Source: Rubripirellula sp.
GTDB taxonomy: Bacteria; Planctomycetota; Planctomycetia; Pirellulales; Pirellulaceae
Assembly: GCA_965216875.1 (NCBI GenBank)
Contig: OZ244207.1
Coordinates: 3,264,001-3,328,000, forward strand
Direction: 5' to 3'
DNA: 64,000 nucleotides
Shown here: positions 18,035-18,109 of the stretch, in pieces
Layout: each line of letters begins with the position of its first letter
How positions within the stretch are numbered: position 1 is the stretch's first letter
Notes under the pieces: generated by a model
Told to the model about the DNA's origin: nothing
Database searches by the model: none
The model's input: the letters and a program-made list of their open reading frames with translations, nothing else
Position numbers and translations under genes: made by a program

Positions 18035-18109
18035 TACGTGCGGCGGGGTTCGAACCCGCAACTCACAGGCATTTAGAGTGCCCGGCTCTACCAATTGAGC
18101 TACGCACGT
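18035..18109 (-). tRNA. tRNA with anticodon CUA (amber suppressor)
   Basis: ACGTGCG-TA-GCTC AATTGGTA GAGC-C-GGGCA CTCTAAA TGCCT-GTGAGTT-GCGGG TTCGAAC CCCGC-CGCACGT-A. Perfect 7-bp acceptor stem, canonical D and T arms, anticodon CTA at 18076-18074. CCA is not encoded. Confidence 0.92.

Follow-up and report, generated by a model that had tools for sequence, protein, structure and literature searches.

What does a tRNA with an amber anticodon do in a bacterium that uses TAG as a normal stop? The question is raised by a tRNA gene in the window, the whole 64,000-nucleotide stretch of Rubripirellula DNA analysed here. The host genome is a single 8.26-Mb contig, 99% complete, in which TAG ends 986 of the 2275 open reading frames of at least 400 codons (43%) and is the commonest stop of these long frames. 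RF1, GlnRS, a class II LysRS and Pth1 are all present. Unchecked suppression would be costly, since TAG closes 43% of the long frames and RF1 is there to act on it.

The tRNA does not stand alone. It closes a conserved cassette of three parts on the minus strand (Pth2-fold gene, 135-aa gene, hairpin, tRNA; Table 1), and it is no lone tRNA-Trp mutant and no tRNA-Pyl. What the sequence-only reading overlooked is an in-frame TAG in the gene two positions upstream, which this tRNA would need to decode.

Table 1 Coordinates of the cassette, its signals and the +1 variant (window positions unless a locus is named)
Feature	Position	Strand	Details
Suppressor-type tRNA	18035..18109	minus	75-nt cloverleaf read from 18109 to 18035; anticodon CUA (18076-18074); A1-U72, C2-G71, A73, C26-G44; CCA not encoded
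Hairpin	18116..18142	minus	11 bp, GC-rich; 6 nt before the tRNA 5' end
135-aa protein, basic, Trp-rich	18156..18563	minus	ATG at 18563; 159 aa if started at a TTG further upstream
Predicted Pth2-fold gene, 117 codons	18632..18985	minus	Readable only through an in-frame TAG, codon 6
Gate, in-frame TAG	18968..18970	minus	After M-T-G-F-T; next codon GTA, no start codon
Shine-Dalgarno-like GGAG	18992..18995	minus	6 nt before the ATG at 18985
Possible extended -10 element, TG-n-TATACT	19030..19038	minus	By eye only
REP-like palindromic repeat	18000..18022	plus	One flank of the cassette
Candidate +1-gated loci	L078: 3545-3618, 3632-4000; L080: 646-719		UGA-A gate and tRNA with 8-nt anticodon loop

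The tRNA gene and its cassette

In the cloverleaf, every stem is paired, including one G-U. The anticodon loop is CUCUAAA, the D loop carries G18G19, the T loop is UUCGAAC, and the variable region spans 7 nt (6-7 depending on C26-G44). This optional sixth anticodon-stem pair, proposed from the letters alone, is present in the minimum-free-energy fold (-30.7 kcal/mol, z -2.3). The Rfam tRNA model matches at 60 bits (gathering score 29, E 1.7e-10), and ARAGORN calls the gene from its CUA anticodon. The missing CCA is shared with nearly all tRNAs of the host genome. In the best-matching sequencing run, possibly the source sample, contigs are identical over the stretch. In a related strain from a second study, the tRNA and the upstream TAG are unchanged; of the 20 bases directly 3' to the tRNA, 6 are different.

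When 19 cassette tRNAs are aligned, 98.2% of stem cells pair, with two-sided changes in 18 of 21 pairs; the covariation is matched by none of 500 shuffles, and slid controls reach 36-51%. The Rfam score, the anticodon and this covariation bear out the sequence-only reading of a real amber-type suppressor. The strong covariation and the presence of cassette tRNAs in phages and bacteria also answer its concern about a pseudogene lacking conserved homologues.

The suggested derivation from tRNA-Trp fares less well. The acceptor identity of tRNA-Trp is A1-U72 with G73. Among host tRNAs, Thr(CGU) and Asp, with identities of 55 and 56, are about as close to the CUA tRNA as Trp with 52, and A1-U72 occurs in 1 of 80 cassette CUA tRNAs. 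These come from a survey in which 93 suppressor tRNAs were found and 90 parsed (three dropped), giving 80 with CUA, 8 with UCA and 2 with UUA anticodons; L111 is mis-parsed in the anticodon arm. Among the 80 cassette CUA tRNAs, G1-C72 is found in 64, including the nearest relatives of the window tRNA, and C2-G71 in 65, the single A1-U72 being that of the window tRNA itself.

The CUA anticodon also occurs in E. coli supU (Su7), a tRNA-Trp(CUA), and in tRNA-Pyl. Unlike these, the cassette tRNA has A73 and C2-G71, and its family G1-C72, in place of Trp identity; its D and T loops are canonical, and the genome has no pylS or pylB above cut-off. tRNA-Pyl has a short D loop without GG, a non-canonical T loop, a 3-nt variable loop and G73; only the 6-bp anticodon stem is common to the two architectures. 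A pyrrolysine system or a genome-wide reassignment of TAG is nevertheless what the ARAGORN label, 'Pyl', would imply, a label based on the anticodon. The genome was searched for pylS and pylB, as the earlier reading had proposed, and no match lies above cut-off: the C-terminal part of PylS reaches 22 bits against 178 and PylB 68 against 348. Because both stay below cut-off, RF1 is present and TAG is a normal stop, indeed the commonest of the long frames, the genome has neither a pyrrolysine system nor a recoded TAG. This explanation is refuted and retains a negligible probability, and the exclusion of tRNA-Pyl made from the sequence alone stands.

The host genome contains other unusual tRNA genes. 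Two large arrays of divergent tRNAs, including tRNA-Leu genes without a long variable arm, lie at G000:C1:591000-632638, and a tRNA-Glu-like gene with a four-base anticodon according to ARAGORN lies at G000:C1:3442059-3442132.

Between the tRNA and the Pth2-fold gene stand the hairpin and the 135-aa gene. Of the nine other loci inspected, five (L024, L037, L039, L040 and L041) likewise have a strong hairpin ahead of the tRNA; it is a candidate processing, pausing or terminator element. Homologues of the 135-aa protein are encoded directly downstream of the Pth2-like gene. The protein belongs to no Pfam, NCBIfam or PHROG family, matches no toxin family, and gives no Atlas match and no Foldseek match at E <= 0.001; its best VIA hit is a designed helical bundle at Z 5.1. 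This lack of matches is no proof of a new fold. The protein and the hairpin probably have accessory roles, perhaps in processing or control of the tRNA, because many phage versions do without the protein. A sigma-70 promoter scan of the cassette region reports no site. Further copies of the REP-like repeat lie on the other flank (19089-19111 and 19224-19246); the genome holds 36 copies, and two relatives hold many.

The early stop of the Pth2-fold gene

The frame of the upstream gene was found by listing open reading frames with TAG read as X. The gene starts with ATG, continues for M-T-G-F-T, meets the TAG, hereafter the gate, and runs on for 111 codons without a change of frame. The first in-frame ATG downstream of the gate lies beyond an invariant Q-x-x-H motif, and the database protein is accordingly a 79-aa stump. 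The read-through product is modelled by AlphaFold with a pLDDT of 95.5. Its top Foldseek matches are Pth2 structures (E 5e-6, TM 0.73), and its profile matches Pth2 in the PDB at E 2e-7. On the strength of these matches the protein is assigned the Pth2 fold. Against PF01981 the window protein scores 14.1 bits (cut-off 23), and phage homologues score 25-30 bits in three of the four tested. The sequence-only reading had allowed for a partner protein of the tRNA, and one does exist, encoded by this gene two positions upstream.

The catalytic residues of Pth2 are Lys, Asp and Thr, and canonical Pth2 prefers peptidyl-tRNA over aminoacyl-tRNA. The family shares with Pth2 (PF01981, including the PTH2 of jumbo phages) the fold, the R-x-D-L and Q-x-x-H motifs and an acidic residue at the Asp position, which is Glu in 106 and Asp in 10 of 116 members. 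It differs from Pth2 in that the Lys position is Gln and the gene is stop-gated and linked to suppressor tRNAs. The Thr that follows the catalytic Asp has no clear counterpart. Q25 and H28 are invariant, and E/D77, D79 and T85 are conserved. To us the Q-A-C-H-A motif is presumably reminiscent of eukaryotic PTRHD1. The altered active site, with Gln in place of Lys, may indicate a changed substrate or a lost activity.

Homologues of the 135-aa protein were collected from genomes, metagenomes and viral contigs; the sources for the enzyme were viral contigs, phages in GenBank and a sample of the phylum. The enzyme family comprises 1221 clusters at E <= 1e-10 and is mainly viral. For the gate, 117 rows were tallied, including the window locus, with identical cores removed and near-duplicates remaining; setting aside ten rows whose N-termini were cut or could not be parsed leaves 107 scorable Pth2-like genes. 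A stop 2-8 codons after the ATG is present in 72 of them, as TAG in 69 and as TGA in three. The other 35 comprise five with a nearby stop that no ATG precedes, one with a doubtful TAA, and 29 scored as open.

The setting of the gate is biased in several respects. A Shine-Dalgarno-like motif precedes 65 of the 72 gated ATGs, compared with 17.6% of all ATGs, and an ATG also follows the stop in three genes. U directly after a stop codon favours termination; at this position the 72 genes have G in 49, A in 19, C in four and U in none. Thr precedes the stop in 31 of the 72, and TAG serves as the terminal stop in only seven of the 69 TAG-gated genes. In the host genome, the corresponding gate scan returns 9 TAG candidates, eight of them besides the cassette gene, with 16 TGA and 4 TAA candidates, which is background level.

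Of the 29 open genes, 18 are nonetheless flanked by a suppressor tRNA. The retention of the suppressor beside ungated genes suggests that the enzyme needs the tRNA beyond its role as an on-switch.

Some family members carry TAG elsewhere. In seven Pth2-like genes (L072, L079/L081, L087, L088, L096, L116 and L287) a further TAG lies in the loop that follows helix 1. Three genes scored as open (L111, L136 and L147) have their TAG in this loop instead of at the N-terminus.

Matching of stops, anticodons and charging

The identity of the gate stop matches the anticodon of the nearby tRNA. A CUA tRNA is present in 10 of the first 13 genome loci and in the examined flank of 42 of the 69 TAG-gated genes (one also has a UCA tRNA), and none of the 69 has UCA alone. 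A UCA tRNA lies near all three TGA-gated genes and, read by hand, also in L083. The examined flank lacks a suppressor tRNA at 27 of the 69 TAG-gated loci. A search of whole records, covering 24 without a flanking tRNA, finds a CUA tRNA in seven of the 12 that are TAG-gated; the five without one comprise a MAG and four viral fragments that are 8-74% complete.

Two loci may extend this correspondence to a four-base stop. In L078 and L080, the leader M-S-G-F-T ends in UGA-A, and the Pth2 frame goes on at +1; the adjoining tRNA folds with an 8-nt anticodon loop, which makes it a candidate for a natural suppressor of the quadruplet or frameshift type that fits its gate. Both contigs may come from one virus. 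On a tree of 105 proteins, the five UGA-gated genes are scattered and imply five changes, of which well-supported branches force only one origin. Repeated switching of the gate from UAG to UGA appears likely from this distribution.

These patterns weigh on another account of the locus, an orphan anticodon mutant of tRNA-Trp or a decaying tRNA pseudogene, beside a second pseudogene in which a nonsense mutation arose by chance. The D arm is tRNA-Trp-like, and blastn of the tRNA region against 40 relatives finds no near copy, only ordinary tRNAs at <=81% and the REP-like repeat. The strong stem covariation, the retention of the early stop in 72 genes with a biased context, the joint switching of stop and anticodon, and the restriction of A1-U72 to the window copy speak against it. 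This account is largely refuted by the covariation, the conserved stop and the switching, and it is very improbable.

The matching extends to cultured phages. A TAG-gated gene and a CUA tRNA occur together in Serratia phage BF, Ralstonia phage RsoM2USA, Acinetobacter phage ME3 and Salmonella phage Arash; the gated gene is unannotated in the BF and RsoM2USA records and truncated in those of Arash and ME3. Whole genomes were scanned for further gates, defined as a Shine-Dalgarno motif, ATG, 1-9 codons, TAG and at least 70 open codons. BF and RsoM2USA return exactly one match each, in both cases the Pth2-like gene, and RaK2, whose gene is ungated and which lacks a suppressor tRNA, returns none. 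In 203 BF/RaK2 alignments of conserved non-overlapping genes there is no internal TAG, and 60 BF/RsoM2USA gene alignments contain one doubtful case. Because the gate scan and the BF/RaK2 alignments show no other, the partner gene is the only evident client of the tRNA.

The reverse relation was assessed with CUA tRNAs chosen regardless of protein. A pattern scan of viral contigs gave 80 loci of at least 121 stretches, among them 17 CUA tRNAs. The enzyme gene lies within 3 kb of three of the 17 (one record is already in the homologue set) versus one of the 63 other loci. Across whole records (12 of the other 14 searched), two more have the enzyme, versus none of eight control records. The enzyme thus predicts the suppressor well, and most sampled CUA tRNAs have no detected partner of this family. 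The link is therefore one-sided, which counts against the mechanism proposed below.

The amino acid inserted at the gate is probably Lys and possibly Gln. The acceptor pattern G1-C72/C2-G71/A73 is without GlnRS determinants and is compatible with LysRS; G1-C72/C2-G71 is the commonest acceptor with CUA and UCA anticodons alike. The discriminator of the 80 CUA tRNAs varies (A 47, G 24, U 8, C 1), so a single charging enzyme is uncertain. In L026 (4085-4453) and L033 (3998-4400), an internal TAG occupies a nearly invariant Lys position of the 135-aa homologue; this is the hint for Lys, and each locus would have two amber-dependent cassette genes. L026 and L033 are sister loci on the tree, and their Lys-replacing TAGs may be a single event. 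Charging by the LysRS of the host is judged slightly better than an even prospect from these sequence features, and charging by GlnRS is possible though unlikely. Against Lys, phage CUA tRNAs in an E. coli extract gave an insertion of Gln mass in 28 of 29 tested; the authors take it for Gln, with the qualification that Gln and Lys are nearly isobaric (10.1101/2025.10.30.685624).

Other tRNA genes accompany the family. Two ungated members, L143 and L161, adjoin ochre-type (UUA) tRNAs, and one of these is a bacterial genome of the same phylum. Near the cassette in L065, L067, L077, L085, L091, L096 and L131 lie further tRNA-like genes whose anticodon loops are of odd size or otherwise unusual; they are possibly decoys, or tRNAs that do not decode.

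Proposed control of read-through and relation to known systems

It is very probable that the tRNA is expressed, charged by the host and in competition with RF1, and that full-length enzyme depends on its read-through. In the proposed mechanism, a host synthetase would charge the CUA tRNA, which would then compete with RF1 at UAG codon 6 of the Pth2-fold gene. Read-through would yield the full-length enzyme, whose level would report the degree of suppression. The enzyme would hydrolyse the acylated suppressor tRNA and thereby cap amber read-through, with the logic of RF2 autoregulation. By analogy with Pth2, the return step, in which the enzyme acts on the aminoacyl or short-peptidyl form of tRNA(CUA) and lowers suppression, stands at about even chances. 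Its hydrolase activity or substrate may differ from that of Pth2, given the change of Lys to Gln and the lack of a clear Thr.

Negative feedback is favoured because the partner gene is the only evident client and 18 of the 29 ungated genes keep the suppressor, and also because hydrolysis of acyl-tRNA esters is what this fold does and because suppression, left unchecked, would reach 43% of the long host genes. Taken as a whole, a suppressor-gated Pth2-fold gene with negative feedback on amber read-through is held with evenly balanced confidence. A broader proposal, which we place a little short of even, sees the cassette as a mobile two-component rheostat, made of a suppressor tRNA and a Pth2-fold hydrolase encoded behind a stop read by that tRNA and rewired from UAG/CUA to UGA/UCA and to UGAA with an 8-nt-loop tRNA. 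It would keep read-through of stops at a controlled level in cells of standard code, explain many orphan suppressors of jumbo phages and perhaps form a step towards codon reassignment.

The same gate evidence, the Pth2 fold and the mainly viral distribution would also suit a sensor of termination stress. The tRNA would be a weak and constant competitor of RF1, and the gate would open when RF1 is scarce or ribosomes are jammed, as in phage takeover or under host toxins, inducing a general peptidyl-tRNA rescue enzyme with no special action on the suppressor. A role in ribosome rescue is proposed for the Pth2 of jumbo phages in PMC7824862. A pure switch, however, would have no need of the suppressor kept near 18 of the 29 ungated genes, the host already has Pth1, and the canonical catalytic Lys is replaced; we consider the sensor unlikely.

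Feedback of the opposite sign would make the Pth2-fold protein an activator of the tRNA, through aminoacyl transfer or through repair or protection of the 3' end with an HD-domain partner, and read-through would become an all-or-none switch. The altered active site is compatible with this, as are the acceptor G1-C72/C2-G71, commonest with both anticodons, and the weakly HD-like domain phrog_14850, fused to or beside the enzyme in several phages. The phage scans and alignments, however, contain no other amber-dependent gene to be switched on, strong suppression would strike 43% of the long host genes, and we know of no Pth2-fold protein that charges tRNA. Such activation is rather improbable.

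The HD-like domain itself is fused to ungated enzymes in L152 (2464-3303), L153 (2467-3309) and L158 (2518-3303) and encoded directly after gated enzymes in L154 (3297-3860) and L157 (3302-3838). In phages XacN1, Xoo-sp13 and RAS14, ungated enzymes are fused to a weakly HD-like domain, and CUA tRNAs are present. The domain is possibly a tRNA 3'-end repair partner; compared with PDB sequences, it gives no match.

A further alternative is addiction or selfish linkage, in which a mildly toxic or selfish suppressor is locked by the stop to a useful or antidote gene, with the 135-aa protein as a second effector. The spread of the parts is patchy: chromosomes carry the enzyme in 6 of 401 genomes of the phylum and the 135-aa protein in 2 of 301 genomes of the family, and a plasmid search with the enzyme gives no match. 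The REP-flanked position and the TAG inside the 135-aa gene of L026 and L033 would also agree with linkage of this kind. It overlaps with the feedback model, ungated versions persist, and no toxin family is matched; its probability is small, slimmer again than that of activation.

The negative-feedback reading has its closest parallel in prfB, the gene of RF2, which is autoregulated by an early in-frame UGA (PMC12421855). In both, a conserved premature stop stands near the start of a termination-related gene, and the identity of the stop matches the decoding factor. Unlike in prfB, the stop is passed by a suppressor tRNA encoded in the cassette, lies at codon 3-9 and is mostly UAG; the product would be a Pth2-fold protein and no release factor, and the feedback is a prediction. 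The +1 frameshift of prfB is absent from the window gene and is found only in L078/L080, there probably with the 8-nt-loop tRNA.

In stop-recoded phages and their 'code change' operons (10.1101/2021.08.26.457843), phage CUA and UCA tRNAs likewise would read stops in a standard-code host. Unlike those phages, the genomes here are unrecoded, the cassette has neither synthetase nor release factor, and the partner gene is the only evident client. They differ also from the code 15 type, as TAG is a frequent host stop and is absent from the inside of genes in the 203 BF/RaK2 alignments.

In standard-code phages and bacteria, suppressor tRNAs without a target have been noted before; among jumbo phages, those of Atu_ph07 (PMC6102473) and XacN1 (PMC5852040) stand unexplained, and the XacN1 authors looked for an amber target of its CUA tRNAs and found none. 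XacN1 carries two such CUA tRNAs, similar in type to those described here, and one enzyme of the family, ORF364; unlike the window gene, ORF364 is an ungated HD-like fusion, and the link between tRNA and enzyme is not drawn in the text consulted. The full-text literature searched, largely outside subscription journals, describes no Pth2-like gene that is stop-gated and paired with a suppressor tRNA to match, though the tRNA tables of these papers may list some of the tRNAs. Within that literature, the suppressor-gated Pth2-like module is without precedent.

For some orphan suppressor tRNAs (5 of 17 in an unbiased sample from at least 121 stretches), the cassette names a definite, conserved target together with a partner enzyme. 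Cultured phages carry the system, and with its length of about 1 kb the cassette lends itself to direct tests in E. coli. If the feedback model is true, translational control would gain a new form, and nature would offer suppressor tRNAs that limit themselves, tRNA-selective deacylases and a candidate natural quadruplet decoder for code expansion.

The surroundings of the cassette in the window hold further elements. Two cobalamin riboswitches lie on the minus strand at 8523-8728 and 23636-23858. The latter precedes nrdA-nrdB (20607-23519 and 19285-20319), the genes just upstream of the cassette; the nrdB of the window, used as a query, was not found in two genomes of the same genus. Converging on the tRNA from the other side (13894-17972, plus strand) are genes for an ECF-type sigma factor and a Ser/Thr kinase with LRRs and a 165-aa Ala-rich open reading frame, the last with a weak match to Imm5 (E 0.04).
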